Shown: positions 4,701-41,444 of the stretch, one piece after another | How positions within the stretch are numbered: position 1 is the first letter of the stretch | How the letters are laid out: the number at the start of each line of letters is the position of its first letter | NCBI GenBank assembly: GCA_044892525.1 | Contig: CM097885.1 | Coordinates: forward strand, 22,880,001-22,940,000 | Reading direction: 5' to 3' | DNA: 60,000 nucleotides | From: Schmidtea polychroa | Taxonomy: Eukaryota | Translations under genes and position numbers: made by a program | Notes under the pieces: generated by a model | What the model was told of the DNA's origin: nothing | Databases searched by the model: none | The model's input: the letters and a program-made list of their open reading frames with translations, nothing else

Positions 4701-5498
4701 CTTTGATTCGGATCTCTTTGTATATTTGTTTCAACTCCATTTCTTGATTTATGTATTCAAATTTGATCACCAATGATAATTGTCTTATTCTTTTTATTCT
4801 TTTAGCTGTAGTCGTTGTATTTTCCCCAATTTTTTGTCTTTTTATAATTACCGTTGTAATTCTAATTGCTGTTGAACTTCTTTGATCCCGTGTCTTTATT
4901 ATCTGTATCCGGCTGCTTCTTTAGTTTATAACCAGACTATATATTTGGTATTTGCTTTCAAATTTCACACATATCCGTTAAATTCGTTTTATCCATGTTA
5001 ATATTATTACTAATTGGTTGCTGCCGATTGTTGTTCATACTTGTATTCTTAAAATTTCCCTAGCTTTTGCCGTTGATGCCATTCTACTTGCAATATTTAC
5101 AAGATGCCTGACTCTTTTGAGCCGGCACTGTTTGAGTCTAAGATTTATACCAAATTGAACTTTTACCAGATAAATTCAAATTCAGTTTATTTCATTTTCT
5201 TCAAATTTTAAGAAAACAGATCATTTATGTTTGAATTAATTAATGGTATTTTAATTATTAAATCAGTATTTTATTCATTTTTGTTTAATTAATTAATAAT
5301 TAATAATTAAAAAATATTTTATTAGTAAATTATATCATTTTCCATATATCTTTATTATTTTACCACAACGATGGACATAGTATCTTTCCAAAAATCTGAT
5401 TTAAATATTTTTCACAGACAAATATGAAAATATTTTGATTTCATTTAGTCTTTGAACAATATTTTCATTTCAGCATAAATCTGAAAATTAGTTCATCA

Positions 5499-5533
<35 letters not shown>

Positions 5534-6318
5534 CATTAGTATAAAGCAGTGTTGTCCAAACTGTGTGCCGTGGCGAGTGACCAGGTGTGCCGTGAAATTT
5601 TTTTAAAAATAAGTCAAAAAACCCGGTTTTTCCAAACAACTTAATAAAAGGAAATTGAATTGTGGATATTTTAACAGTTATTTCAAATTTAAATGTTAAT
5701 CAGTCAATTAAATCAAAGAAGCAGGAACGTATGGTTAACATTGATCAAGAATTAAGAGTTTGTTTGTCAAAAACTCCACCACAATTGGAACTTATTTGTT
5801 CGGAACATCAAGCATATAAATCTAGGATTAATTAAATTTTAAACAATTAAATGATAATTTAAGCAAATTTAAGAAATTGACAAGGACTATCGTATAGTTG
5901 AAATTTTTTCCATTTTTATTAAATATATTATTCCCAGCAAAAGGCTTAAATAATAATAATAAGAATTGTAAGACCTACACGTTTTTTGACAATCTATTTT
6001 ATCACATTTTCATAATATTTAAATAACGTAATTTATTTAATATTACATTATTATATACATCCCTTCCAGATTCGCCTGAATCTTCAACAACTTTTCTAAC
6101 AACACTCAAGTGCCGTGGCATATCATATCCGTTACTTCTGAATAAACATAAATGGTTTTATGACATGTCAGAATTATTATCTTTCTGTCCATTTTTTATT
6201 CAGGTTCGATTTTATTCATGTCAGGTCACCAGCAGAATGTTTTCCTTCGATTATAATTTCATTTTTATTGTGGCCTTGCAAGTACAGTCTTGGTTTATAG
6301 TTATATATAACTCTAGAG

Positions 6319-11411: not shown

Positions 11412-12866
11412 ATGAAATTCAATTTAGAATTTAGGTTAATTATGTCTTTAAACTGGGATGATTGTTTGGCAGCAATGGTAATATGCTTAAACTTCTTTAT
11501 GCTAGGTATCCAGGAAAGCAGTTTATATACAATATTGCCAAAATATTTGGTTGATGAACCTGTCAATGCTACAACAAATTTGACCTTCCAACACAATACA
11601 AGTCGTACAATATTCCAATGCCATTTGCAAAAGCCTCCATATTTTATTGTTAGTATGATATTCCTATCTAAAAGTCTTGCTCAATTCTTTTTTAACTGCA
11701 TTATTGGTTGTTTTGTGGATAAAGTGAATAATTTTATCATTTTACTAAGCGCTCAAGGCCTCGGAATTATAATCGCGTTGATTTATGCATTGAATAATTC
11801 TATTACAATGTATATAGTTGGTCGACTCTTAGATGCTTTTGTTAGTTGCTCTTTATTTATCGGAGGTTTTTCAATTGTTTCAAAATTGTTTAGTAACGTT
11901 AATACGAGAGGACGATATTTCGGTTTGGGTAATACTTTGTATTTTGTCAGTCATTCTATCGGTCCAGTTTATGGTGCTGAAGTCGACGTAAGACTGGGAA
12001 AATCAGCAGTTTTCTTTTTACTCATACCCTTATGGATTGCTACTATGTCAGCTACATTTATATTGAACCGAAGAACACAGAAACGATCTAACAAATCCAA
12101 GAATAAAATAACTGAAAACTTTTCAAACAATAAAACGCCTGATGAAATGGATGAATTAAGCAATCCCAATGAATTGAAAATAGAAATTATTATTTCTTCA
12201 GATTCTAAAGTGCCTGAAACATATCCTAATTTGACAAGAGAAAAAAATATTCAAAAAGAAAGCAAGAAGACATTTATGAAATTATATAAAATAATGAAAA
12301 ATCCATACGTTTTATCATGTCTCTGTCAACTGTTCATTGTTAATCTCAGTATGTTTGCGTTGCCAGCAACACTGCCTTCGTGGATGGGGTTCCGATTGTG
12401 CGCAACGGAAATTCAGCAAGGATTGGTTTGGGCTTTTGGATTTATTGGATATATGAGCGGGGTTGGATTGGTTGTACTGTTACTTAAGTGCGCTTATCGG
12501 CTGCGCTTTTTTTCACCAATAATAGCGCAGATTATTGTTGGAATTTTATTGATTTTATTGCCATTCAGTTATGATTGGCGCTTGCTGTTCATTCCGATTA
12601 TTGGCATGTATTTCAGCGTTGGTGTTATTGAGCAAGTACTTTTTCCCTTGACAACATACCTGGCAGATCATCACTTCAATTCCGATTACGGCTCAATGGC
12701 ATCTTTAACTTCTCAATCTCTCACACTCAGTGGAATAGTTGGAACCTTATCAAGTGGTCCAATAGCACAGAGATTTGGGTTTCGGTCTTTGTGTATCAGT
12801 CTAGGAACTATAAACTTATTATTTTGTCTTTTATCATTACCTCATCAAAAATTGTTACAGTCTTAA
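11412..12866 (+). CDS. Intronless MFS transporter, SLC18 (VMAT/VAChT)-like
   Basis: 484 aa with about 12 hydrophobic segments and a central hydrophilic loop; LSKSLAQFFFNCIIGCFVDKV resembles the SLC18 TM2/loop (FASKA..Q...NP..G...D), plus GR in TM4 and GPVYG in TM5. Confidence 0.8.
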   Translation: MKFNLEFRLIMSLNWDDCLAAMVICLNFFMLGIQESSLYTILPKYLVDEPVNATTNLTFQHNTSRTIFQCHLQKPPYFIVSMIFLSKSLAQFFFNCIIGCFVDKVNNFIILLSAQGLGIIIALIYALNNSITMYIVGRLLDAFVSCSLFIGGFSIVSKLFSNVNTRGRYFGLGNTLYFVSHSIGPVYGAEVDVRLGKSAVFFLLIPLWIATMSATFILNRRTQKRSNKSKNKITENFSNNKTPDEMDELSNPNELKIEIIISSDSKVPETYPNLTREKNIQKESKKTFMKLYKIMKNPYVLSCLCQLFIVNLSMFALPATLPSWMGFRLCATEIQQGLVWAFGFIGYMSGVGLVVLLLKCAYRLRFFSPIIAQIIVGILLILLPFSYDWRLLFIPIIGMYFSVGVIEQVLFPLTTYLADHHFNSDYGSMASLTSQSLTLSGIVGTLSSGPIAQRFGFRSLCISLGTINLLFCLLSLPHQKLLQS

Positions 12867-18192: not shown

Positions 18193-18198
18193 CATATT

Positions 18199-19901
<1,703 letters not shown>

Positions 19902-20080
19902 GACTCCACTGTTATTGTTGTATTGTGTGAGCACACACTCGTTATAATAATTAGCAATATGAATAGAGTTTTCATGGTGTATCAAATCAAAACCTTTCTT
20001 TTACATTTATAGTCTATCAACCAATCAAAATCATCCGGTATTAGTATAAATAAAACATCATATTTTAAATTATTGTAAAA

Positions 20081-20601
20081 ATGTCTCAATTTATGGAAAA
20101 TCTTTTAAGAGAACTCGTCAACAGGAATATTATGGAAAGCCTATGTTTCCTGGTCGATCGGACCGAAAAGATTATAGAAGGTAATCACATTGATTATGAC
20201 GATGTGATCAATTCTGATTGTCTCGAAACCAAAAAATTCTATTTTAATAGAATTTTTAACTGTCTATGCGACGATCAGATGAAGTGGACCCGAATACTAG
20301 TAGGGTTCGCTTATATGAAAATAATAATCCAAAGAAGTCTATGGGACTCAGAGCACTATTATCAGTGGTCTCAAGAAGTAATACTTTTATAATTTATATT
20401 TTATTAATATTTATTTTCTAGATAATCAAGTCAAAGTTTCAACCATGGATTGAAGCCAATGGCGGATGGGGAGTACTCAATCAACTCGCCAGAAATGCAA
20501 AAGAAATAGACGATCAGAAAAGAAAATTTAAAAACTATGTAAAACTTGCAACAGGTGTTGCTATTTTGTATATTTTAACCAGATTTTTAAATAAAAATTA
20601 A
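20081..20601 (+). CDS. Bcl-2 family protein, 2 exons (20081-20377, 20422-20601), 158 aa
   Basis: BH1-like FNCLCDDQMKWTRILVGFAY; after a 44-bp phase-0 GT-AG intron, BH2 PWIEANGGW and a C-terminal TM anchor LATGVAILYILTRFL preceded by basic residues. Confidence 0.88.
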
Positions 20602-22450: not shown

Positions 22451-22888
22451 TTAGAAATCGACCAATGAAATTATCTCATTTCGAACATTGTCAACAAATT
22501 CTCTATACTCCAAATTTCTCAACCCCAACATGACAACCTTTCCACTAGCAAACACGTTGACACATATAGGGTTATATTTTAATAGTCTTAGTGCCGGAAA
22601 CAATTCCGGTTCAAACATACAATCACATTTTTTCGACATGTTATATAGATTGATACTATGTCCCATATCCATAGTAACGGTAATTGATTGGATTTTAATA
22701 TTATTTATTCGATATTGTAATTTATTAATATCCAAAGGTTTCTTACATCCCATGATTCTGCATTTACCAGTCTTGAAAAATATTATCGGATATTTCCCAC
22801 TTCTATCGATAATTTGCTGGGGTTTCCCTGGTGGGAACCTCATATTCGATACATCAAAATTTCCTCGATAATTTATATTTGCTAACAT
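22451..22888 (-). CDS. TATA-binding-protein (TBP)-like protein, 145 aa
   Basis: Two-repeat TBP core: LANINY / IIFFKTGKCRIMG and IQSITV...INL / FEPELFPAL / VNVFASGKVVMLG (cf. TBP YEPELFPGL...LIFVSGKVVLTG). Confidence 0.88.
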   Translation of the reverse strand: MLANINYRGNFDVSNMRFPPGKPQQIIDRSGKYPIIFFKTGKCRIMGCKKPLDINKLQYRINNIKIQSITVTMDMGHSINLYNMSKKCDCMFEPELFPALRLLKYNPICVNVFASGKVVMLGLRNLEYREFVDNVRNEIISLVDF

Positions 22889-23632: not shown

Positions 23633-24166
23633 ATGTTTCTAAAAGCAAGGGTGAAAAATATTAGGAAATTAAGAAAAGGTATTAGAAAGACTATTAAAGT
23701 TCCAAAGGTTCCACCAACAACTAGTTATACACCATCTAAAAAACTTGTAACTGAAAATTTCTCTGCAATGAATCTTATTTCGAAAAATCCTAAACCTAAA
23801 CGTAAAACCCGTAAAACCCGTAAAACCGGTAAAAAAGTAGTTAAAAATCATCGCAGTTTTCCATTTTTTAATGCATTGTTAAAGGCTCCGAGTATGAAAA
23901 GAATGAATATATTGCAATCATTCCCAAATTTTGTTGTCGATGATTTACTCAATATTATACTTAAAGTAGTCAAAGGCAAAATTAAAATCAGTAAATCAAA
24001 AAAGCATTTATTGAGCAAACATAGGAAACCTTTATTATCTTTAGTAAATAATAAAAATCGTAAGCAAATGAGGAAAATTATATATAAACAACAAGGTGGA
24101 TTTATTGGTGCCTTGATACCTCTGGCATTATCATTATTAGGTGGAGTTGTAGGAAATCAATCATAA
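23633..24166 (+). CDS. Basic core protein with adenovirus pX(Mu)-like C-terminus
   Basis: Very K/R-rich; ends QQGG|FIGALIPLALSLLGGVVG, resembling the adenovirus pX GG|[FI]LP.LIP.IAAAIG tail. Confidence 0.75.
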   Translation: MFLKARVKNIRKLRKGIRKTIKVPKVPPTTSYTPSKKLVTENFSAMNLISKNPKPKRKTRKTRKTGKKVVKNHRSFPFFNALLKAPSMKRMNILQSFPNFVVDDLLNIILKVVKGKIKISKSKKHLLSKHRKPLLSLVNNKNRKQMRKIIYKQQGGFIGALIPLALSLLGGVVGNQS

Positions 24167-24615: not shown

Positions 24616-24704
<89 letters not shown>

Positions 24705-25334
24705 TTAGGTAAAGAATTCTACAATAGCAAAGTTAAGCAAATCCTCGATAAACTGAAAATAAATCACTACTCGGTACATTCTCAATACAAAGCTGCCCAT
24801 GTTGAAAGATTTAATCGAACATTGAGAGATAGATTAAAGAAATTGTTCGTGCATCAAGGTAATAAAAAATGGGTAAATGCTTTACCGAAAATAATAACAA
24901 GTTATAATCATTCATCACATCGAGGACTGAATGGATTGAGACCGGTTGATATTACATCAAAAACACCATTATCTAAAAAATCTGTAAAAATTGCAAAACC
25001 TAAATATAAAGTCGGTGACCATGTTAGAATTAGTAAAATTAGTGCATCACCATTTATTAAAAATTTTGATACAAATTGGAGTGATGAAGTCTTTGTAATT
25101 TCAAAAATAAATACTAAACAGAATCCTGTAATGTATGTCATCAAAGACAATGATAATAATATTGTACAGGGGAAATTTTATGAGCAGGAATTACAAGTCA
25201 TTCCTCCCCCAAAAGTATTTAGAATTCAAAAAATATTGAAAACTAAAAAGGTCGGTAAGGATAAACAATACTATATCAAATGGCACGGTTATCAAAACCC
25301 GTCATGGATATCGTCAAAAGACCTAGTAAAATGA
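24228..25334 (+). CDS. int: Retroviral-type (rve) integrase with C-terminal chromodomain; 2 exons (24228-24615, 24709-25334), 337 aa
   Basis: WQMD, LQTD-LG-KEF (after removal of a 93-bp intron) and VERFNRT DDE motifs; YKVGDHVRI, NWSDEVF, GKFYEQEL; chromodomain RIQKIL...YYIKWHGY..PSWI. Confidence 0.95.
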
Positions 25335-26335
25335 ATTTTTATATTATTTTACCTAGCAATAGCTGTCCACTTATTCATCCAGATAATAAAGCCAGCAAAT
25401 TCAGGGTCAATCTTCAAAATCCGATATATTTGGATAATAGCTGGGAAGTTGCTCTGTTGGATTTTACATTTGTATACCAAGCCTTTCCATTTTATAGTAA
25501 GGCTAAAATTGGATACAAAAAGAATGAGTGGCAGGATAGATTATTGTCTATGATCATTGATAATGCAGATGATGAAGTTCGGTTGTCTAACTCAACTGAT
25601 CCAGCTGTGAAAATGTATATTAACCATTCATATATAGTAGTTGAATGTAAACATTATCCTTTTACTGTAAAATTTGATAGTTTGGAAATGGCAAAACGAT
25701 TGGAATTAAAAACCCAAAGTCATAAAGTTCTTTCCGATAAATTCACTATGCTACGACCGGGATATTCCAAAACTGTACAGCGATTTGAACCAATTTTATT
25801 TACAGTTTCATATCCGGGTATAACGTCTGGTACATTTGAGTTCAAAGATAATTTATACATTTCGAAATTGGATGAATTACAGACATATTTAAAACAAAGT
25901 GGTTTATTTAAATCATTGGAAATATCAGACAGATTCAAATTCAGTTTGAATCCCGAATTTACTGAAATTACTTTTGATGCAAATCTAATAAAAACATTAG
26001 GATTATCAAAAGCAACATATGCTCAAGATGATCAAGGTACCCTAGCTCCGAAAATAATTAAACTTCACCAACAAATGTTCATCTATAGTAATATTGTTGA
26101 TCCTGTAATTGTTGGCGATTCTTTGGTCCCACTCCTGAAATCTGTTTGGATTGAAAAATATGAACATGATGAAGTAGTCAATATAAATATCGATAATCCC
26201 ATGTATTTACCTGTGTCAACCTCATGTATAAACAATATAGAAATAAATATACGTGATGATTCTGGTAAATTAATCGCATTTCCAAAAGATTCAAAAACTC
26301 ATTTAACATTACATTTTCGTAAAGTAGATGGCTAA
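25331..26335 (+). CDS. Minor capsid protein (penton)
   Basis: N-terminal FYIILPSNS...N....F...L..P..L...WEVAL and C-terminal IYSNIV....VGDS..PLL...Y.PV....I..IEI.IRDD.G...LHF motifs; ATGA overlap with the integrase stop. Confidence 0.9.
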   Translation: MNFYIILPSNSCPLIHPDNKASKFRVNLQNPIYLDNSWEVALLDFTFVYQAFPFYSKAKIGYKKNEWQDRLLSMIIDNADDEVRLSNSTDPAVKMYINHSYIVVECKHYPFTVKFDSLEMAKRLELKTQSHKVLSDKFTMLRPGYSKTVQRFEPILFTVSYPGITSGTFEFKDNLYISKLDELQTYLKQSGLFKSLEISDRFKFSLNPEFTEITFDANLIKTLGLSKATYAQDDQGTLAPKIIKLHQQMFIYSNIVDPVIVGDSLVPLLKSVWIEKYEHDEVVNINIDNPMYLPVSTSCINNIEINIRDDSGKLIAFPKDSKTHLTLHFRKVDG

Positions 26336-26693
26336 TTCGGATATTATAAGTATGTATAGTGGTAGCCAATCTGGCGGTGAATTACCATATTTTATTGGTA
26401 AACAGTACGGATCAGGATGGTTGAGAACAATTGGTAGATTTGCACTTCCTATTCTTAAACGTATTGGTAGTTTTGGTATGAAAACTGCTAAAGATGTTAT
26501 TATGAATGAACAGAAAATATTACCATCTCTAAAATCAAATGCTTTAGCAGAATTAGGGAAAGTTTTACCCGGGGTTGCAGGTATGTTTCAAAAACCAGCT
26601 CCAGCTCCAGCTCATGCTCCAAAACGTAAAAGACATGGAATATCACGTATAAACAAACGAATGAAAGGCCATGGAACTATATTTGCAAAATGA
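26328..26693 (+). CDS. Conserved Polinton virion core/cement protein (PW-like)
   Basis: QSGG.LPYF.G.QYGSG followed by an amphipathic basic helix (WLRTIGRFALPILKRIG); lies immediately upstream of the MCP. Confidence 0.7.
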   Translation: MANSDIISMYSGSQSGGELPYFIGKQYGSGWLRTIGRFALPILKRIGSFGMKTAKDVIMNEQKILPSLKSNALAELGKVLPGVAGMFQKPAPAPAHAPKRKRHGISRINKRMKGHGTIFAK

Positions 26694-27913
26694 TTTGTGG
26701 TAAATCTGAATTATGTATATTTGATAGACCGTCGCCCCAGGCTGTAATAGAATTTGGGGCGTTTGAGGAAGTTTTTCCAATGAATTCAATTACTGATAGT
26801 AGAAATGATATAGAGTTTTATATTAATGGTTCGCAAACTGAATATTTAGATTTGAACGATACTTTATTGACTGTTCAGATCAAGGTTATAGATAAAGATA
26901 AAAAAGCTTTGGGTGATGCTGCTGATGCAATACCGAACAATTTCATGTTTCATACTCTTTTTAAAGATGCTGTGTTGGGATTTAATAATATCAAGATTGA
27001 AGGTGGTAATAATACATTCATTCACAAGGCTTTGATAGAAACTATTTTAAATTACAATTCCGATACTAAAAATACATGTCTTACTCCAATGGGATATGCT
27101 GCAACCGACGATGAAAGAAAAAAGTGGATTAAAGGCTCAAAAACATTCACCATGTGTTCATCGTTACAACTCGATTTTATGGATCAACCGAAATATTTGC
27201 TTCCAGGAGTTAATGTCCACATTCGATTGAAAAGATCCGATTCTGCACTAACTCTTACTAGTGCTACAGGTGCACCAATATGTCAATTAGTTGATGCAAA
27301 ATTATTGGTGAGAAGAGTTCGAGTAGACCCCTCAGTATTAGCTGGTCATCAATTGGGTCTTAATTCAAAACATGCAATTTATCCATTAAAAACAAAGGAA
27401 ATTGTACAATTTGCTATTGCTAAAGGTGCTTCATCATTCTATAAAGAACAAATATTTGGTGACAGAAGAATGCCTAATTTTATTCTGATAACATTTCAAA
27501 GTGAAGCACAATATAATGGATCATATACTGCGTCCAGCTCAATTTTCAAAAACTTCGGTGTTACATCATTGACTTTGTCGAAAAATACTGATTATAGAGA
27601 AACATATATTCAAGATTTCGAGAATGACAATTACTGCGCGACATATATGCAGAGTATTGTTAGAAATCTCGGTTATTTAGATAAAAATTTGAATTGCGGA
27701 ATAACACTAGAAGAATTTAAAAGCAAATACCCATTTTTTACATTTGTTTTAGCCCCTGATTTTGATTTAAATCAAAGTCAATTACCTCAAAATGGAAATT
27801 TACGACTGGATATAAAGTTTGCAAAAGCTATTACTGAACCAGTACATGTTATAATATATGGAGTATTTGAAAATGAAGTTCAAATTACTGCAAATAGAAC
27901 AGTGTTGGTATAA
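26690..27913 (+). CDS. Major capsid protein (double jelly-roll)
   Basis: C.KSEL..F start, IEF.I.G...YLDL..T.L, Q.KYL..GV...I.L.R, G.LRL..KF...L......I.YG.F...V.I...R motifs of Polinton MCPs. Confidence 0.93.
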   Translation: MICGKSELCIFDRPSPQAVIEFGAFEEVFPMNSITDSRNDIEFYINGSQTEYLDLNDTLLTVQIKVIDKDKKALGDAADAIPNNFMFHTLFKDAVLGFNNIKIEGGNNTFIHKALIETILNYNSDTKNTCLTPMGYAATDDERKKWIKGSKTFTMCSSLQLDFMDQPKYLLPGVNVHIRLKRSDSALTLTSATGAPICQLVDAKLLVRRVRVDPSVLAGHQLGLNSKHAIYPLKTKEIVQFAIAKGASSFYKEQIFGDRRMPNFILITFQSEAQYNGSYTASSSIFKNFGVTSLTLSKNTDYRETYIQDFENDNYCATYMQSIVRNLGYLDKNLNCGITLEEFKSKYPFFTFVLAPDFDLNQSQLPQNGNLRLDIKFAKAITEPVHVIIYGVFENEVQITANRTVLV

Positions 27914-28325
27914 ATGTATACAGAAACACAAAAAGTTATCATGGAGTAAGTTGTTTTTTATACTCTGGATTTATTTAAATAGTTCTGTTCAGGTCAATAA
28001 AATCGGAAAACAGATATTGGGAAATGAATTTGTTGGAGTTTTTCCTCTTGATAAAATTCCATATTTGAGCAATAATCAAGCAATAATCGTCAATACTCAA
28101 TCGTCTCATCTTGGTGGAGAACATTGGATAGCTATATATGTGAAACCTGGTAATATATTCGTGTTCGATCCTATGGGTTTCTATTACCCAGCTTTGTTGA
28201 TATCAAAACTACAAACAATGGGAAAACCTATTGTGTATAATAAAACTATGTTTCAAAATCCTTTGACCCAAACATGCGGTCAACATTGTTTAGCTTGGTT
28301 ATTGTACAAAAAATTTGATGTTTAA
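27914..28325 (+). CDS. Adenain-type cysteine protease; 2 exons (27914-27945, 27983-28325), 124 aa
   Basis: F.GVFP.D, IVNT.....GEHW, FDP.G, Q.....TCGQHC catalytic motifs; a 37-bp GTAAGT...AG intron restores the MDSVQV start. Confidence 0.92.
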
Positions 28326-28414
28326 AGAAAAATGTTTAATAAATTTGATGTTTAATAAATGTATCCTTTCCTTTGTTGTTGTGTTATTATTATTAATATT
28401 ATTATTATTATTAA

Positions 28415-28460
<46 letters not shown>

Positions 28461-28821
28461 ATTATTAATATTATTATTATTGTGAAAAATATTATTATTT
28501 TTAATTAATTTTATTATTATTCTAATAAATATTATTATTTGTAACATAAAGACTGCCTTTGCATGAGGCATGCACAGTGCAAGTTAACAAAGGCATGACT
28601 AACAAAGGCAGTCACATGTAATTCTGACTGATTTACATTACATACATGCATGCGTGTGATTGGTTGAGAGAGTAAAATATTCAATGTATATGTGTGTGTG
28701 TCTATATTCTCATTGGCTGGGACAGGAAAATATTCATTCTCTTTATAAACATTGACAAATCTAAAATTTGTCACAATTATTTCAAATTTTTCAAATTTCG
28801 ATTTCAATTTTAAAAATCTAA

Positions 28822-29496
28822 ATGGCTAACAATAATAAAAATGGAATTCTAAGAAATCTTTTGACGACAATGGGTAATTTATTTTATTTTATTTTATTAT
28901 ATTTTATTTTATTATTATTTTAGAACCATTCGATTGGTACGATGTAACGGAAGATGACTCGATATTAACAGTGGATAAGATCTTCGGTAAATTTATTATT
29001 ATAATTTTTAATAAATTATTTTTTTTTCAATTCAGAAAATGCTTCAAATAGCGACGATGATGTCGTCTTTATCGGGGAAAGTAATGCTCCTAATAAGATC
29101 TTTGGTAAATTTATTATTATTTTTTTTATTAAATTATTTTTTTTTCAATTCAGAAAATGTTTACAATAGCGACGATGATGTCGTCTTTATTGGGCAAACT
29201 GATGCCCCTAATTATGCCCCTAATTATGCCCCAGTTCTCAAAGAAAAAAGTAAATTTTATTATTATTTCTATTAAATTAATTTTCATTTCAGAAAATGTT
29301 TTAAATGTTGATATTGACGAAGAAGAAATTAATGTCCTCGCATCGGATGATGGTGAAATCTGTGAGAATGATGGGCAAATCTCATCGGATGATGATCAAA
29401 TCTCAGAGAATGATGGGCAAATCTCATCGGATGATGATCAAATCTCAGAGAATGATGGGCAAATCTCTGAGAATGATTCCGACATGGAATCAAAAT
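28822..29496 (+). CDS. Five small exons (28822-28873, 28924-28986, 29036-29104, 29154-29249, 29293-29496) encoding an acidic leader with SIM-like motifs; probably the 5' part of polB
   Basis: Four 43-50 bp phase-1 GT-AG introns keep one open frame; duplicated exons encode SDDDVVFIG; ends at a phase-1 donor GTAAGA at 29497. Confidence 0.7.
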
Positions 29497-30244
29497 GTAA
29501 GAAATATTTATTTTTATATATATATTTTGTTTTTTATTTATATGTTAAATTTGTAATAACTTATTTAAATATTTTGATAAAAAACTTTTTTAAATATTTT
29601 AATAAAAATTATGATGAAACTTCTGAAGAAAATGATTTTATGATTTATAATGAAAATATACCGAAAAATTATGAAGAAAAATGATTATATGTTTTATAAA
29701 GAAAATGATGAAAATATGACGAAAATTATGATGAAGAAAATTATGAATTTATGATGAAGAAAATAGGATGAAAATCAATTATGATGAAAATGATTTACAA
29801 CCAAAATTATGATGAAAATGATTTATGATGATATAATGAAAATGAATTATGATGAAGATATGACGAAAATTATGATGAAAATGATTTATGATGATATAAT
29901 GAAACTTCTGAAGAAAACTATTTTATGATGAAAATTATTTATACCGAAAATTATGAATTTATGATGAAAATGATTTATGACCAAAATTATGATGTAAATG
30001 ATTATACTAAGTTTCTGAAAGTTATTATTATCAAAATATTTAAAAAGTAAAAAAAAAAATCAAATTTTATTTTATTAAATTTCTCGGGCCTCCTGGCCAA
30101 GAAGGGGAGATCGATTCTCACCCTTATGTAATCTGAAGCTTTTATTTGGATAAACAATAGATGCTGGAGTGTAATACTCCTACATTAAACGTTCTGTAAG
30201 AGTTCTGTCAGGTTTCGGTATTAGTTGTTGATGTTAGGAATTGT

Positions 30245-30821
30245 TAGGAGAGGCTTGTTAAGGCTTCTGTCAGGTTCAGTATTGTTAAGGCTTCTGTCAG
30301 GTTCAGTATTGTTAAGGCTTCTGTCAGGTTTAGTATTGTTAGGCTTCTGTCAGGTTCAGTATTGTTAGGGCTTCTGTCAGGTTTAGTATTGTTAGGCTTC
30401 TGTCAGGATCAGTAGGAGAGGCTTGTTAGGGCTTCTGTCAGGATCAGTAGGAGAGGTTTGTTAAGGCTTCTGTCAGGTTCAGTAGGAGAGGCCTGTTAAG
30501 GCTTCTGTCAGGTTCGGTAGGAGAGGCTTGTTAAGGCTTCTGTCAGGTTCAGTATTGTTAAGGCTTCTGTCAGGTTCAGTATTGTTAAGGCTTTAGTATT
30601 GTTAGGCTTCTGTCAGGTTCAGTATTGTTAAGGCTTCTGTCAGGTTTAGTATTGTTAAGGCTTCTGTCAGGTTTAGTATTGTTAAGGCTTCTGTCAGGTT
30701 CAGTAGGAGAGGCTTGTTAAGGCTTCTGTCAGGTTCAGTAGGAGAGGCTTGTTAAGGCTTCTGTCAGGTTCAGTAGGAGAGGCTTGTTAGGGCTTCTGTC
30801 AGGTTCAGTAGGAGAGGCTTC
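30245..30821. repeat. Tandem minisatellite of 26/27/35-bp units (core GGCTTCTGTCAGGTTCAGTA)
   Basis: Many direct copies visible, with outliers at ~30200 and ~31150-31215. Confidence 0.9.
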
Positions 30822-31619
30822 TATGTGGTTAGGAGCACTAAAAGTTAATTAAGTAGGGCGGAGTTGGAAGACTCCATTTGTGGTCAAATATTATACATTA
30901 TATTATATTAAGTATTAGAAAGATAGGTCAAAGGAAGAGGTATTATTAAAGATAGGTGGTTATAATGGATATACAACAAACTAAGAACTAAAAAAATTGA
31001 AAAAAAGGAATTATCAGTGAGGCGGAGCCGCTACAGGGGCTCCTACATTGACCTACACTGATAATATACACGGATAATATGTCAGATAGTTTAGTTGCAA
31101 TCTGAGTCCTAGGTGGGACGTGGGAGGTTTGTCGGGTGATGTTTTAGTATTGTTGCGGCTTCGGTCAGGTTCTGTAGTAGCTGTTGGGAGAGGCTTGTTA
31201 AGGCTTCTGTCAGGTTTATTCATCAAAGGATGTGGTTGGATTCATTCAGGTTATATTTGCTGTAGATTATAAGTAAATATATTGTATATAGATATAGGGT
31301 TTTCCCATTCCGGTCAGTGCTATGAATGTTTTAAGAAACAGAATAATTCAGATAATCATATCAATTTATTTCTAAATGTAGTTTAATATCAATTAAAGTA
31401 AATATAGGAAGGATGTTGTATAGATTTATAGTTAGAGAGATAATGCAATTTTAAATTAAGATTAGTTAATATTCATAAGAGGAGTATGATAAGTATATAT
31501 AGTCAAATTAAAATTGACTCAAAAATCAAAGTTAATTTAAATATTAGGAATATAAATTAGCGAATATAAATGAGGGTATTTAATATATATACATATATAT
31601 TGTAACTTAGTTAAATTAT

Positions 31620-32725
31620 TTAGATTGAGATATTTGAAAATCTCAATTTCCAAAATAACTAGTAATTTAAACAATTGTCAATTAAATTCGAAATGTATTT
31701 TATTACCAATTTAATTCAAAAAGTATTTTATTATAAAATTATTTAATTAAATATAGATAGGATTATGTATACAATAAAATTTTAAATATAGTTAGTATTC
31801 AAAAGATGAATATATATATAGTTAACCAAAATCCAAGTTAATTCATACCTTAAGAGATTAAGGTATAGATATAGTCAAATTAATTAAATTTTAATGAATA
31901 TAATTTTATAATAGGAAATTATAAATAAGGGTAAGTTTTATATCTAGTATATATAAAGATAACGATATTTGAAAATTTCAAATTCCAGGATAATTAGTAA
32001 TTTAAACAAATATCAATTAATTCAATATATAGATATAGTTAAATTAATTATAATTAAGCTTTTAAGGAATATAGTTTTATAATGGTGATATGAAGGTTAG
32101 ATATAAATAAGGGTATATATATATATATATATATATGAGAAATTAAATATAGATAGGGGTACATATAATTTATAAAAAATTTAAACAAAATTTAAACAAG
32201 TGTATTTTATTACCTATTTAATTCAAAAAGTATTTTATTATAAAATTTAATTAAATATAGATAGGATAATGTATACAATAAATTTTAAATATAGTTAGTA
32301 TTCAAAAGATGAATATATATAGTTAAATTAAAATTAAACCAAAATCCAAGTTAATTCAAACCTTAAGAGATTAAAGTATAGATATAGTCAAATTAATTAA
32401 ATTTTAATGAATATAATTTTATAATAGGAAATTATAGATAAGGGTATTTTTTATATCTAGTATATAATGATAGTAAAATTATTTAAATTGAGATATTTGA
32501 AAATTTCAAATTCCAAGATAATTAGTAATTTAAACAAATATCAATTAATTCAATTTATAGATATAGTTAAATTAATTATAATTAAGCTTTTAAAGAATAT
32601 AGTTTTATAATGGTGATATGAAGGTTAGATATAAATAAAGGGTATATATACATACATACATATATACATACATACACATATATATATATATAAATATGAG
32701 AAATTAAATATAAATAAGGGTATAT
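31620..32725. repeat. Imperfect ~0.5 kb AT-rich tandem duplication
   Basis: Blocks such as TTTAATTCAAAAAGTATTTTATTATAAAATT (~31710, ~32217) and GATATTTGAAAAT recur. Confidence 0.75.
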
Positions 32726-32768
32726 ATAAAAAATGTTGAAGATATTTCACCGTGATACATAGCTGAGC

Positions 32769-34532
32769 TTATAAATCCAAGTTGCAGTCTGCATCATAGG
32801 ACGAATCGGAAGTAGAATCTGAATTGGAGATATTATCGGAGTCTGAATCACAGGGAGGATCGGAAATGGAATCGGAGCTAGAGATGTTAAGAGGGTCTGA
32901 ATCTGTGTATGTGCATTCAGTGATGTAGTTTGGAGCATAGACACGAACGGAAGCATAATTTCGATCATACTCAGAAATTGAGTCAGAATCTGGGTATGAA
33001 TCAGTATCAGAGCTAGACTCGGAATCTGGATCAGAATCAGAGAATGACTCTGAATCTGGATATGAATCAGGTTGTTTCTCAATATCTGTCATCTTCTTTT
33101 CAATAATACTGTCATCAATAAGATTTATATAGTGGGCATTCAGTGTTGTAGAGTGGTTTTGAATTTGGGCTGTTGGTAGATAAGTATTCATGATAAATAG
33201 ATTATCTTCTTTGTTGGCAGTTTTAGTAGGCTGTTTTTCAGTATCCGGTTTTGTTTTAGTAATGCTGTCGTCCATAATATTGACATTATGGGCATTCAGT
33301 GATGTATAGTTTTTTGAATTTTCGGCTGTTGGTGGATCAGTGTTCATGATAAATAGATTATCTTCTTCGTTTGTATTATTAGGTTCATTGCTCGGTAATT
33401 CGGTATTAGATCTAGAATTGTCATCTGTTTGGACTTCAACATCGTACCTAGCAGATAATAAATCGAAATGCATATTATCTAGAGTATTAATAGGTTTTAT
33501 TGGTATAGGACTAGAGTAGTGGGGTCTAGGTAGGTTAATATAGTTTGAGGTTTTTGGTTTCCAAATTTTGACGGTCGGTTTTGGTATAGAATAAGGTGGA
33601 TTTATTTGAGTTATTGTATTATTCTTAGGTCTCCTGCCAACATTTTCCGGGAGCCGGCCTCGGGCCGGCGAGCTGCGTATATTATTCTTTTCGTCCTCCG
33701 ACGGAGGACGAAAAAAATTTTCAGCATGGTCATCAGATCTGAAATTTGGTGAAAATTTAAACAAATTTTCCCTTAAATTTTCTTTAAATATTTTAATTTT
33801 TCTATTTTTGATTTTGTTAATTTTTCTTTTTCTCTTTTTATAATTAAATTTCACGTTATTAGGCTTTTCATTATTCATTTTTACATTATTAGGTTCTACA
33901 ATATTAAGTTTTACATTATTATTAAGTTTAGTATTATTAAGTTTTAAATTATTAAATTTTACATTATTAAAATCATTTATGAAAAAATCATTATAATATT
34001 TAATGTTAAGATTATTATTAAGAAAGGATATATATTTGATACTTTGAGAGTCTTTTTTATAATTTTTATCAAAGGGTGTTTTTTTAATTTTATCTTTATA
34101 AGAAATATTATTAGCAGTATTATTTTTGAAAACATTTTTATAATTAGATAGGTAATTTTGATTATTAGTTACTTTTAGCAGCCATATTTCTATGGCCGCT
34201 TCGAACGCGTTTAGGAAATCCACGTGCTGTTCATGGACCAGGTCTCCTATGATGAAACTTCCAAAGACCATTTTATCGGCATATTTGAAAGTGTTTAAAC
34301 TGATGTTCCTAAAGTTGGTGCCGATACTTTCCCATATTGCGATTCGAAGATCCTGTGACATATCAATGTTTCCTGCAAAATAGTTAAATAATTGATAAGC
34401 AAGATAGAACTCATTGATTTCTGCCCCAGTGCTAGTGAATGTTATATGGAGTAATTCTACTAAGCACTGAGGACTTTTACAGAAAATTTTCAGCATGGTC
34501 AAATTATGGTTATAAATCCTTGTAGTTTGCAA
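32769..34532 (-). CDS. Hypothetical 587-aa protein: globular N-terminal ~125 aa, basic NLS-like region, Ser/Asp-rich tail
   Basis: A long stop-free ORF in very AT-rich DNA; KKRKRK, duplicated EDNLFIMNT..PTA motif and SD repeats; no family recognised. Confidence 0.7.
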   Translation of the reverse strand: MQTTRIYNHNLTMLKIFCKSPQCLVELLHITFTSTGAEINEFYLAYQLFNYFAGNIDMSQDLRIAIWESIGTNFRNISLNTFKYADKMVFGSFIIGDLVHEQHVDFLNAFEAAIEIWLLKVTNNQNYLSNYKNVFKNNTANNISYKDKIKKTPFDKNYKKDSQSIKYISFLNNNLNIKYYNDFFINDFNNVKFNNLKLNNTKLNNNVKLNIVEPNNVKMNNEKPNNVKFNYKKRKRKINKIKNRKIKIFKENLRENLFKFSPNFRSDDHAENFFRPPSEDEKNNIRSSPARGRLPENVGRRPKNNTITQINPPYSIPKPTVKIWKPKTSNYINLPRPHYSSPIPIKPINTLDNMHFDLLSARYDVEVQTDDNSRSNTELPSNEPNNTNEEDNLFIMNTDPPTAENSKNYTSLNAHNVNIMDDSITKTKPDTEKQPTKTANKEDNLFIMNTYLPTAQIQNHSTTLNAHYINLIDDSIIEKKMTDIEKQPDSYPDSESFSDSDPDSESSSDTDSYPDSDSISEYDRNYASVRVYAPNYITECTYTDSDPLNISSSDSISDPPCDSDSDNISNSDSTSDSSYDADCNLDL

Positions 34533-34570
34533 TGTGCATCTACAATAGTTAAAATAATAATAATAATAAT

Positions 34571-35025
<455 letters not shown>

Positions 35026-35032
35026 TTTCTTT

Positions 35033-35077
<45 letters not shown>

Positions 35078-35280
35078 TATAAATAATAATCAGACCCCGT
35101 CTACTAAAATCTCTCTAATATTCTATCGAATATATTAACCTATTTTCTATAATGATTTATCATCATTTGTTATTTAATTCAAATGAACTATATAACAAAT
35201 GATGATAAATCCTTGTAGAAGTAACAATTAGTTTTCTATATAGAAAAAAACAATAAAATTTTAATTTTATTATTTAACAG

Positions 35281-38200
35281 GTATACTATACCCGAACTAT
35301 TGTCAAACATCAATTGGACATAGTGATAAATGTCATAGAACAATGACAAAATATTACCGAAAAAAGTTTAATTCGGTCAACTTTTTTATATGCCCCAAAT
35401 GTGTAACGAGCGAAAAAATAAAATATAGGGAATTTTTTAATAAACATCATAATCACTTAGGGCAATTTTCGATATCAAAAAATGTTTTATTTAAAAAAAT
35501 AAATAAAAAATTAAATAAAAAAAAAAAATTAGAAAATAATTTACAAAAAAACTTACAAAAAAATTTAGAAAATAATTTACAAAAAAATTTGCAAAAAAAT
35601 ATTAAAAAAAATAAAAAAAATATTATTAAAGATTCAAATATTAAAAAAGATGCTATTAAAAAAGATACTATAAATATTATTAAAAAAGATATTATAAATA
35701 TTAAAAAAGATTCTATTAAAAGACCTGCTGGTTTAATTAAAAATTGCATTCCTAATAAATTATCGCGACCTGAAGTGATAGTCATCAGCAAAGATGAATG
35801 TGTAGCTTCAACATCGTTTACACACCAAGCACCCATTACACAACACGCACCCATTACACAACAAGAAGTGATAGTCATCAATGATGAATGTGTAGCTTCA
35901 ACGTCTTTGAACATATGCCAAATAGGCGGCTCTTTATTTGAACCTATGGTAGAATCCGATTTGAACGGATCGCGTAAAACTTTAAGATTTGATATTAGAA
36001 ATCAAAACTTAGTAAAAATAGCCCTAACATCAAAAATTGAAGATAGATTAATACAGGAAATAGAAAAGATGGGCAATGTAAAAATTCAATTCACAATTTT
36101 AATTAAATTTGAAAAAGATGGGGAGATCCGGGATAATTATTTTTCAAACAATGCTCAAGTTTTTACATCAAACTTTATAAACGAGGGGGTGAGCAAATTA
36201 AATGAAAAGATTGAGCAATTCACCTATTTAGGAAGCGGGTGGCGAGTAATGAATATTTTAGAAATAGATTTTATTTTAACGAAATACGCACCCGTCAGTA
36301 GATTATCCGGACATAGCTATATAAAAACCCCATCAGCATTAAAATTAAAACATGCAATAATTAATGTAAAAAACAACGACCATAAGTGCTTCTTGTATAG
36401 CATTCTTGCACTTTTAAAAAGAGAAGAAATAGGTCGTAATCACCAAAGAGCCGCCAAATATATAGAATTTTTACCTCTATTAAATTATGACGAAGACACT
36501 GATTGCCCGATGAGGCTATGCAACATTCCCAAATTTGAAAGAAAAAATAGAGATTTAAACTTGAGCATAAACGTTCTGTCTTATAATCCAGCCAGTTCTG
36601 ATTTAGATATTTCTGAGGATTATGTAGCTCACCACCCTCATCTTAATATAGTACATCGCTCCAAGGTTATAGACGGTAGACCAATTTATTTATTACTTTT
36701 GAGTAATAAAGATAAATATCATTATACAGCCGTGACAGACTTGGACAAATTAATGAATTGTCATGAAAATGAAAATGTAAATGTTCAAATAAGGTGTAAC
36801 TGGTGCCCACATTGTTTAAATGGCTTTAGATATAAGAATGCTTTCGATCAGCATGTTGCTCTATGCTGTAAAAATCAGACTGGCACAACTTTGTATACAC
36901 TTCCTAAAAATAAAGATTTATTATTCACAGATTACGCGAAAACAGTTACACCTCCCTTCGTAATTTATGCCGATTTTGAATCGGTTTTACCAGAACATGA
37001 AACATATCATCAAATACATTTACCCATATCAGCAGGTCTTTTATTAATTAATAATTATACACACACTAAATTTTATTATTATTTTTTTGGACCTAATTGT
37101 ATTTTGGATTTTTTGAGGAAAGTGGAGGAAATTGCTGTCACAATTGTCCTGCCATATTATGATCTTGAAGGTCGTAAAGGTATGTCTACTTTGTCTTTTG
37201 CTCAGGAGCGTGCCTTTCGATCTTCCACTATTTGTTATTTGTGTAAAAAATCTATTATTAATCCTGTGAGAGATCATTGCCATTTTACAGGTAGATATGT
37301 CGGAGCGGCATGTAGGAAATGCAATGTCTCTCGCAGGATTAATAAATTGTTACCTGTTGTCTTTCATAATTTACGAGGCTATGACCTCCACCATATTTTA
37401 AAACATGGTCTCAGTGATTTTCCCCTTTGGGAACTTAATATTATACCTACCTCTACAGAAAAATTTATATCTTTAATTGCATATATTAACAAATTGCCTG
37501 TTCGTTTTATTGACAGCATGCAATTTGTTAATTGTTCTTTAGCAAAAGCTGTGAAAACCTTAACTACTTTTCCTTTGACTTCGTCTGTCTTTCAAGGGTC
37601 GATGATTCACTCTAAAGGTATCTTTCCATATAATTTCGCCACTTCTTTAGATGTTCTTGAATCGACTTTAGAATTACCTCCTATTTGGTCTGATGTTACG
37701 GAAGATCAGTACGCTGAGGCTCAACTAATTTGGAGTCAGCATAACTGTAATAATTTGTTAGATTATATGTTAATCTACCTAAAATTGGACGTATACCTCC
37801 TCGCAGATTATTTTCAGCAATTCCGCGGTAAGGCAATTGCTTACAATGGTCTGGATCCTCTTAATTTCTACGGGATTCCCGGTATGTCATGGGCCTCAGC
37901 GCTTATGACATTAACGGAACCAATAGAACTTCTGCAGGACATGGAAATGTATAATTTCTATGAGGGAGGTATCCGGGGTGGGTTAACATTTGTTAACAAA
38001 CATTACACGGCTACTTCAGATGATACAGAATTATTGTACATTGATATAAATAATCTGTATGGTTGGGCTCTTAGCCAAAATCTTCCGTATGGTGATTTTT
38101 CTTGGGTGAATAATAACTTGAATGATGTTTTACTTGAATGTATGAACACGGATATTGATAACCTTCCATATGGGTATACTATGGAGGTCGATATCGATAT

Positions 38201-39338
38201 TCCGGAATGTGTGCATGACTTTTTGAATGATTTTCCGCTTGCGCCGGAAAAGTTGTGCCCGCCTAATTCAAAAGTTGAGAAGCTTATGCTTACGCATTGG
38301 CCAAAGAGGAACTATGTTCTTCATTGGAGGCTTCTCAAATTGTATATAGAATTAGGTGCGGTTGTTGTAAATATTCATAGGTGTATAAAGTTTAAACAAG
38401 GACCTATCTTTAAATCCTACATAGACACCAACACCACTTTACGATCTCAGTCTACTAGTGAGATATATAGGGACTTGTTTAAATTGTATAATAACTCTCT
38501 TTACGGTAAATCGGTTGAAAATTTGAAAAAAAGAAGGAATTTGAGGTTGTGTAATTCATCCGAAAATATGATAGTATACTCCTCAAAGCCGACTTTCAGA
38601 AAGTCCATAAGAATCGATAACGATCTGATTGCGGCACATTTGGAAAAAGATGTGATTTGTTTAGACAGACCTAGCTACATTGGTCAAACAGTACTAGATC
38701 TGTCTAAACTGCGGATGTACCAGCTCCAATATATTGATTTGGAGAAGTACAGACGCCAATATAAATGTATCATAAATATTATTGCCGGTGATACCGACAG
38801 TTTCTTTTTGGAAATAAAAAATTTAAAATTAACAACTTTATTACCTCAGATGATCTCTGATAATTTATTGGATACATCAAATTACGATCCAACCCACCCC
38901 TTGTATAGTAGGAACCTTGACTCGGTCATCGGGAAGTTTAAAGATGAGAGCAAGGGATTAGGGTATTCTGAATGGGTTTTCTTACGCCCTAAATGTTATA
39001 GTCTTTTAGGTAGTAAGGAAACGGTAAAAGCAAAAGGGGTTAAATTACCAGGGACATCAATAAATCACGAATCATATCTAAATTGCTTTCATTCAAATCA
39101 GGTGATTTCTGTACCGCAGACTAGAATAGGTACTAGAAATCACCAACTTTTTACTTTTAAAAATTCGAAAATTGCCCTAAGTAATAATGATGATAAGCGC
39201 GCGTGGCTAGGAAAAAACTTAAGTTACGCATTTGGGCACTATTTAGGAGTTGACGAATTAAGCGAATATGATGAGGAATTCGGTCCAGCTCCAAGTCCCA
39301 GTTTTGACGACAGCGAATGGGACGAAGATCAAATTTAA
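35281..39338 (+). CDS. polB: Protein-primed family B DNA polymerase (main exon; first in-exon ATG 35343) with terminal-protein/vOTU-like region and EndoVII-like insertion
   Basis: GSGW, DHKCF...HY, ExoI YADFES, CxxC..DHCHFTG.Y.GAAC..CN, ExoII FHNLRGYD, motif A YIDINNLYGWA, motif B KLYNNSLYGK, motif C GDTDS, KCY, KAKGV, DDKR. Confidence 0.97.
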
Positions 39339-39659
39339 ATAGAAAAAACTTTATATTTTTGATTCATAAAAACTTGTATAGTGATTTCATGATTTATAAA
39401 AAATTGTATAGAAACTTTTATTTAAAAACTTGTACAAAAACCTGTATATTGTATAAAACTTGTATTTATATATACATATTCAATAAAATTTTTAATCAGA
39501 TTTTTTAAGTATTTGGTGTTTTATTATAATTTTTTTATATTTAATGGTGATTTTTATATAGTCTGCAGTGAGCATGCAGCTATATGTTTTATATAGTCTG
39601 CAGTGGGCATGCAGCTATATCAATGAAATAATAATAATAATAATATTAATAATATTAAT

Positions 39660-39741
<82 letters not shown>

Positions 39742-39749
39742 TTAATAAT

Positions 39750-39801
<52 letters not shown>

Positions 39802-39879
39802 CTTTAAACAGGTTGCAAAGGGTACTAGTCATGCTTATTATTGTTATACATTTGATGGTTACATTTTGAAAGCTCTATT

Positions 39880-40311
39880 TTGATTTTTAATAAATCAATA
39901 TGTGTTTGTCCGAATACAGCCAAGTTGATGGATATTTTATATATTCTCGATAAACCAAAATGGTCAAAGCATCCAGGAAAAAGAATATCTCAAAGATTGG
40001 AGAATTTAGAAAACAGTTATGAACTAACATTTGAATATATACAAAATATAAAAATTAAATTGATTGATCATATTGAGGTTTTCAATAACTCTATTACTGA
40101 AAATAAAAAGAATATGAAGATTATTGATAAGAAGCATGATTATTTGTTAAAAAAGATTGAATTATTATTAAGAGAAATTCAAACAATCAAAGGATCAATA
40201 GAATATCTAAAAATCAATTCAACGTTACCAATTTCTAACAATAATGCTGCGAATAGAAGTGCATCAATATTTAGTTTACCTTTGTTAATTTTACATTATT
40301 TTATTGTTTAA
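39880..40311 (+). pseudogene. 5'-truncated TIR copy of the coiled-coil/GPI-type gene
   Basis: Protein identical to 19475-19975 from FNKS onward but lacks the signal peptide; the ORF opens on TTG. Confidence 0.7.
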
Positions 40312-41438: not shown

Positions 41439-41444
41439 CATATT

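Follow-up and report, generated by a model that had tools for sequence, protein, structure and literature searches.

A Maverick/Polinton polymerase gene of Schmidtea polychroa, probably spliced from six exons, that would encode a removable N-terminal arm

Does the DNA polymerase gene (polB) of a Maverick/Polinton element begin at the ATG that opens its long open reading frame (ORF), or does it take its start from a chain of very short exons on the far side of a 5.8-kb intron? The question is raised by a 60,000-nt stretch of the Schmidtea polychroa genome (assembly GCA_044892525.1, contig CM097885.1, positions 22,880,001–22,940,000; hereafter the window, in whose numbering all positions are given), for which an initial annotation had proposed a six-exon polB with an acidic leader rich in SUMO-interacting motifs (SIMs). 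We favour, with a probability of roughly 0.7, the reading that polB is spliced, that it encodes a 1,513-residue precursor, and that the N-terminal arm of this precursor is cut off at the sequence QIGG by the element's own protease. Exon geometry, the open frame, the conservation across lineages of splice sites, a split cysteine codon and the position of the GG site, and the copy-specific nature of an insertion in the last intron are read directly from the DNA.

The element spans 18199–41438 (23.2 kb, or 18.8 kb without the nested insertion) and was assigned to the Maverick/Polinton class on its terminal inverted repeats of about 1.7 and 1.55 kb, its AG...CT ends and the 6-bp target-site duplication that flanks it (18193–18198 and 41439–41444). 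By its sequence, polB encodes the protein-primed DNA polymerase of an animal Maverick/Polinton: the ORF at 35343–39338 (1,331 codons) contains the motifs YADFE, YIDINNLY and DTDS, and 543 of 7,993 scored proteins are homologous at E ≤ 1e-20, many of them carrying PF03175 and one being 50% identical over 1,112 residues; the window protein itself gave no PF03175 match in the Pfam search. Its core (35931–39338, plus strand) can be divided into putative terminal-protein (TP), vOTU, exonuclease and polymerase regions by the published layout and by known motifs, among them the candidate catalytic Cys (36384–36404) and His (36720) motifs of the vOTU. In gene content the element resembles the adintovirus-type Mavericks with a pPolB of TP–vOTU–EXO–PALM layout (bioRxiv 2024.03.18.585575; PMC8502044), sharing with them the inverted repeats, the 6-bp duplication, the long PolB, an integrase of the rve/chromo type (Pfam rve, E 1.2e-05, below the curated cut-off), an A32-like packaging ATPase (Pfam Pox_A32, E 3.6e-07) and an adenain-like cysteine protease (27858–28325, plus strand; Peptidase_C5, PF00770, E 4.6e-06). 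The 781-Mb host genome holds many near-identical copies, with all 40 scored matches to the acceptor region 99–100% identical and all 105 to a PolB segment 98–100% identical.

The gene model, all on the plus strand, consists of five short exons and one long one. Exon 1 (28822–28873, 52 nt) opens with an ATG and ends at a phase-1 donor; exon 2 (28924–28986, 63 nt) bears the third-position bias of a coding constraint; exon 3 (29036–29104, 69 nt) carries the SIM-like string DDDVVFI, as does its duplicate, exon 4 (29154–29249, 96 nt); and exon 5 (29293–29496, 204 nt), with its acidic 21/42-nt repeats, ends on the first base of a split Cys codon. The five introns, of 50, 49, 49, 43 and 5,784 nt, are all GT–AG and all in phase 1, and the acceptor of the last one (29497–35280) lies, as the initial annotation had it, 62 nt upstream of the ATG at 35343. 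With exon 5 joined to exon 6, a single frame stays open over 1,513 codons until PolB stops, so that the six-exon structure is borne out at the DNA level in its coordinates, its phase-1 geometry and its open join. Transcription would start from a predicted RNA polymerase II (Pol II) promoter at 28659–28750, with CCAAT boxes at 28659 and 28712 and a TATA box at 28744; the region is retained in two other lineages, where 152/163 and 118/158 positions are identical.

The choice of acceptor is better than chance. Among the 388 AG dinucleotides of intron 5, 12 satisfy our simple acceptor rule (a pyrimidine–AG preceded by a T-rich, G-poor stretch); of these, the acceptor at 35280 alone gives a frame of more than 44 codons. 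A sister copy with an intron 5 of 1,136 nt has 39 AGs, two of which satisfy the rule; the one outside the model runs into a stop at once. Two further ORFs that overlap the model were examined and rejected as genes, one of 175 aa (29157–29684) as intron read-through and one of 153 aa on the minus strand (35453–35914) as a shadow ORF.

The length of intron 5, which had been presented as a feature of the gene, did not hold up as such: it is an accident of this copy, and the normal intron measures 1.1–1.5 kb. We fetched 20 sister loci, of which 14 were parsed, five had variant anchor sites and were left unparsed, and one lacked the leader region. The segment 30049–34499 is absent, leaving the same empty site, from 19 of the 20, the twentieth being the locus without a leader region, and in the 14 parsed sisters intron 5 is 1,136–1,509 nt long, which answers the question of whether sister elements have a shorter intron. 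The segment (4,451 of the 5,784 intron bases, minus strand) is a nested mobile insertion with a dispersed repeat family of its own, as its two ends recur, identical, at unrelated loci; it was swapped in for 5 target bases and made no target duplication. It encodes a 575-aa ORF on the minus strand (32769–34496), which we rejected as a Maverick gene on account of its place in the insertion. Neither this ORF nor two relatives matched any Pfam family, and so gave no sign of the reverse transcriptase or GIY-YIG gene of a Penelope-like element; an 843-aa relative lies at locus L182. Tandem arrays of 27/35 nt also belong to the insertion, an A-run marks one of its ends, and a hammerhead-like core was seen, by eye only, near 33690–33745; Rfam gave no hammerhead match there at E ≤ 1, and an Rfam scan of 28000–40000 found nothing real. 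Intron 5 of sister L181 was hit by another, unlike insertion, roughly 3 kb long (about 2760–5560 of that locus), whose 577-aa ORF lacks a Pfam match.

Comparison of copies argues that the short exons are indeed exons. Their lengths are constant in 12 of the 14 parsed sisters, and in the other two exon 5 is 42 nt shorter, in frame; over the same 14 sisters the mini-introns drift by non-triplets, between 43 and 51 nt. Searching with a distant homologue, we located five further Maverick lineages in the same genome (PolB core 58–98% identical), all of which retain the acceptor and the split Cys codon. At 18 of 20 fetched loci of other lineages, with PolB cores 58–59%, 73–74% or 98% identical to that of the window, the open frame starts at the same acceptor and about 20 codons ahead of the first ATG are conserved; the remaining two are interrupted nearer to PolB. 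Each lineage has a mini-exon chain of its own with two to five coding exons, and the acceptor AG together with the following G is invariant in all six aligned lineages. A T closes the last leader exon, directly ahead of the GT donor, in the window element, in two other lineages and in three more (L057, L065 and L074) whose exon chains were read by eye and not parsed by script; the junction codon is therefore Cys in all six. In six metagenomic relatives a Cys stands in the same column within a single exon, and the whole module to which it belongs follows its own Met. Differences from two other lineages fall on third codon positions in exon 2 (14/17 and 12/17), and the part of exon 6 ahead of the ATG has a weak codon bias only (first, second and third positions differ in 35, 31 and 43 cases). 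At five metagenomic loci (L086 and L088–L091), GT–AG introns of about 50 nt were seen by eye in the arm ahead of the TP, at other positions. L074 is a rearranged copy in which two polB segments lie head to head and the leader exons are inverted relative to the nearer one.

We also weighed whether the mini-exons could be a separate small acidic gene that ends within intron 5, with PolB starting at its own ATG at 35343 from a nearer promoter. Read-through past the exon-5 donor is open to 29684, an AATAAA stands at 29601, TATA-like hexamers occur in AT-rich repeats just upstream of exon 6 (35033, 35076 and 35189), and no RNA was seen across the junction, all of which would suit two genes. Against this, in four of the five other lineages (by eye) the read-through meets a stop one to three codons on, protein-level conservation covers the 20 codons ahead of the ATG and begins exactly at the acceptor, and a start at 35343 would discard half of the module that the six metagenomic relatives have in full. 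On balance, we regard two separate genes as very improbable.

Besides the TATA-like hexamers, two observations weigh against the six-exon gene. Four presumed-RNA runs, searched over a 2.3-kb stretch of locus L031 that holds the five donors and the last acceptor, yielded four joints, none of them GT..AG; the coverage of these runs was patchy and poor over the exons, and two of them also covered promoter and intron DNA, for which reason we take the result as no evidence either way. In addition, a stop lies downstream of the junction in 8 of the 14 parsed sisters, and many copies thus make no full protein. Taken together, the geometry and its inheritance make it highly probable that polB is spliced in the cell as six exons.

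What the split codon completes is a conserved Cys/His module at the start of exon 6 (35281–35468), whose first Cys, in the window, comes from the exon 5–exon 6 junction. The module reads C-x6-C-x5-H-x3-C, followed by CxxC...HxxH; in an alignment of 11 sequences the pattern is a C-x4-6-C-x4-5-H-x3-5-C cluster and then CxxC...HxxH, with Cys, Cys, Cys, Phe, His, His and Leu invariant, and one homologue (P0028) carries the module in tandem. The proposal that the junction Cys completes such a cluster was thereby upheld, the residue being kept in the six lineages and in the six single-exon relatives. From this pattern we consider the module very likely to bind zinc, as a predicted two-zinc unit. A structure modelled from the 11 sequences was moderately confident (pLDDT 74.6). 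Matches of the module to C2H2 clusters in the atlas, at 0.81, are leads only. There are points on the other side: the His of the first cluster is absent in one lineage, and a structural search of PDB, BFVD and the VIA library gave no Foldseek match at E ≤ 0.001 and a best Z of 3.3. No Pfam family matched the module, and the best PDB sequence had an E value of 0.43. A role in binding DNA or a partner is a guess.

Downstream of the module, the arm continues with a basic low-complexity stretch and two EVIVI cores (35469–35918, plus strand; the cores at 35772 and 35865) and ends at QIGG (35919–35930), just ahead of the point where homology to other PolBs starts, which we take as the start of the TP. 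Is this a processing site, as had been suggested? Of 29 close homologues, 17 have the pattern [QM]xGG or [QM]xGxG between −10 and +2 relative to the TP start and 21 have it between −70 and +10, compared with 0.003 occurrences per 80 residues of the PolB core. Among the 13 ORFs of the element, QxGG/QxGxG is confined to QIGG and two small basic ORFs, 23633–24166 and 26328–26693, which belong to the virion cassette and encode candidate core proteins that the element protease would process. The adenovirus protease (AVP) cuts (M/I/L)XGG-X or (M/I/L)XGX-G; with Gln at P4, QIGG departs from this strict consensus and agrees with a relaxed rule that admits Gln at P4 at a conserved position, making it an AVP-like rather than a consensus AVP site. 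Indeed, AVP tolerates Gln at P4, processes the precursor of the adenovirus TP (pTP) to TP, and in one serotype cuts pTP at a site with Gln at P4 (PMC4246237). Counting against processing, along with the departure from the strict consensus, the pattern occupies the TP-start position in only 5 of 67 distant homologues, and the pattern was chosen after the sequences had been seen, from homologues that are related to one another. We nevertheless consider it likely that cleavage at QIGG removes the arm, the QxGG-type motif at a conserved position lending support to the original proposal.

The enzyme could be another one. QxGG resembles the C-terminus of SUMO, and the site might serve the vOTU or a host protease as a ubiquitin- or SUMO-tail-like substrate, or the arm might never be removed. 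The vOTU has been proposed as the active protease that processes pPolB (bioRxiv 2024.03.18.585575), which speaks for such an alternative, but the cut proposed there lies between TP and vOTU, downstream of QIGG, and QxGG/QxGxG recurs in the two small virion-cassette ORFs, which are of the kind usually matured by adenain-type proteases. Removal by the vOTU, or no removal, appears unlikely to us. Since AVP tolerates Gln at P4, QxGG marks virion-cassette proteins and the vOTU cut is proposed further downstream, the adenain that the element itself encodes is the likeliest candidate. In a metagenomic relative (L088, 1–470), duplicated mini-exons each encode IQTGG, which we take to contain the same tetrapeptide that ends SUMO.

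The SIM reading of the arm fared less well. DDDVVFI twice in the leader and EVIVI twice in PolB are present as had been claimed, and by the published definition of an acidic run followed by a hydrophobic core, which is a loose motif (PMC12751080), the core of four Val/Ile/Leu residues can be counted in all of them (VVFI twice, VIVI twice). The two DDDVVFI strings stem from a single 118-bp duplication of exon plus intron, and the EVIVI cores stand in near-identical duplicated stretches, so that we count two motifs and not four independent ones. Only the leader pair has the acidic flank, EVIVI lacking three D/E within six residues. Furthermore, shuffling the leader yields at least one acid-flanked motif 41% of the time and at least two 7% of the time, and the observed number does not exceed that in shuffles.

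These results leave room for a different view of the leader, in which the gene is truly spliced, the acidic stretch serves as a neutral spacer that can expand, its SIM-like strings arise by chance where acidic sequence has been duplicated, and nothing counts but the start codon, the Cys and the zinc module. It concerns the SIM step alone and is compatible with the rest of our reading. The shuffle frequencies and the duplicate nature of the pairs fit a spacer, and so does leader length, which differs between lineages, from some 22 to some 190 residues (by eye). No acid-flanked motif was found in the examined arm of 20 of 25 close and of any of 62 distant homologues, and in six outside relatives the starting Met lies only a few residues ahead of the first Cys, the acidic leader being absent altogether. 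Less easily explained by a spacer, an acidic-then-VFIG motif is retained in three lineages while its flanks diverge, which would fit a reverse-type SIM. Moreover, 9 acid-flanked cores were counted in the 3,869 arm residues of the 25 close homologues, where shuffles give 2.3 and the 27,644 residues of the PolB core have 8; this count used single-exon frames, leaving out leader exons and arms of fewer than 60 residues, and the 9 cores are patchy, coming from 5 of the 25 proteins and including duplicates. In the short-leader lineages L057 and L065, acid-flanked motifs follow the zinc module instead; PEVIEI repeats are present in three outside homologues. We give the neutral spacer somewhat less than an even chance, and regard SUMO binding by the arm as a tentative possibility, less probable again.

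Multi-SIM proteins such as RNF4, HSV-1 ICP0 and EBV BGLF4 likewise have tandem hydrophobic cores beside acidic runs in a low-complexity arm (PMC12751080, PMC12751084); the window arm differs from them in having neither a RING nor a kinase domain, in owing its spacing to recent duplications and in that its SIMs are putative. A role of the arm against silencing is less likely than SUMO binding itself. The suggested targeting to nuclear bodies may not apply to this host, PML bodies being a vertebrate feature. A search of the genome for host SUMO returned ubiquitin-like matches only, which we read as ubiquitin; many of these domains form part of long open frames, of up to about 1,400 aa, that are scattered over the genome, which suggests a repeat family carrying a fused ubiquitin. 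A single-sequence model of the N-terminal 606 residues of PolB had a pLDDT of 36.5 and was not used.

In the mechanism that we favour, polB would be transcribed by Pol II from the promoter at about 28660–28750, and five phase-1 splices would yield the 1,513-residue precursor. Its parts would follow one another as an acidic SIM-like leader, the two-zinc Cys/His module, the basic stretch, the two SIM-like cores, QIGG, the TP and the polymerase. During replication the arm may position the newly made TP-polymerase on its DNA template and at its nuclear site, as the precursor part of adenovirus pTP may do, and when particles mature adenain would cut at QIGG and remove the front 377 or so residues. 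As the leader exons are symmetric in phase 1, the leader could lengthen by duplication with its frame unbroken, and exons 3 and 4 display just such a duplication. A bolder version, which we think unlikely, has tandem SIMs and the new two-zinc module docking the TP-polymerase precursor on SUMO-rich silenced chromatin for excision and replication, an Ulp1/adenain-type protease then removing the arm at a SUMO-tail-like QxGG, and exon duplication tuning the number of SIMs.

Adenovirus offers a parallel in layout. Its E2B genes likewise take their start from short upstream exons. Like the window protein, pTP has a precursor part ahead of the TP and a GG-type site at which Gln at P4 is tolerated, and nuclear targeting is among the roles proposed for its processing (PMC4246237). 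The likeness is one of layout; in the window element the TP is fused to the polymerase, and cleavage here is predicted. Intact vertebrate Mavericks are described as intronless (PMC8097293, which cites Kapitonov and Jurka 2006 for the statement 'no introns'), whereas the window polB has five introns of spliceosomal type. The text of Krupovic et al. 2024 (bioRxiv 2024.03.18.585575) contains the words 'zinc', 'intron' and 'SUMO' 0 times, and its passages searched mention no arm ahead of the TP with a Cys/His module, SIM-like motifs and QxGG; a spliced PolB goes unmentioned in the passages searched of the adintovirus (PMC8502044) and nematode (bioRxiv 2023.08.22.554363) papers. Among the literature titles and abstracts searched, none concerned a spliced Maverick PolB leader, its SIMs or a GG site ahead of the TP. 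Introns within polinton-like elements are known from introner-bearing maverick-polinton-like elements of dinoflagellates (PMC11957031). Those are mostly transposon insertions acquired after integration; in the window element, by contrast, position and phase are inherited across lineages 58–74% identical, and one junction builds a conserved codon.

The rest of the element and its surroundings may be noted briefly. Two ORFs, 26690–27913 and 25280–26335, had no Pfam match and are labelled capsid genes on size and position only. Within the integrase ORF, a 93-nt GT...(TAT)n...AG stretch (24617–24709), which translates as a poly-Ile run and differs in length among sisters, is likely an intron. A TBP-like gene (22451–22888, minus strand; Pfam E 1.6e-15) lies head to head with the ATPase cassette. 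A weak Bcl-2-like ORF (20081–20392, plus strand; Pfam E 0.01) has a look-alike in lineage L057 (about 2801–3230, by eye), where it precedes the polB leader. An ORF with a coiled coil and a hydrophobic N-terminus (19475–19975, minus strand) lies partly within the terminal inverted repeat, and for this reason a shortened copy of it is present at the opposite end of the element (39928–40311, plus strand). A host MFS transporter ORF (11412–12866, plus strand) adjoins the element.

Annotation based on ORFs would start PolB at 35343, losing 182 residues and half of the Cys/His module. Because an inherited intron builds a codon of the module, the polymerase would depend on the host's Pol II and spliceosome, tying replication of the element to the nucleus. 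The conserved GG site before the TP suggests that Polintons may share an adenovirus-like pTP maturation. SUMO-dependent silencing is required for transposon repression in Drosophila (PMC10363806); if the putative SIMs bind, the arm would provide a direct link between a self-synthesizing transposon and silencing of this kind.

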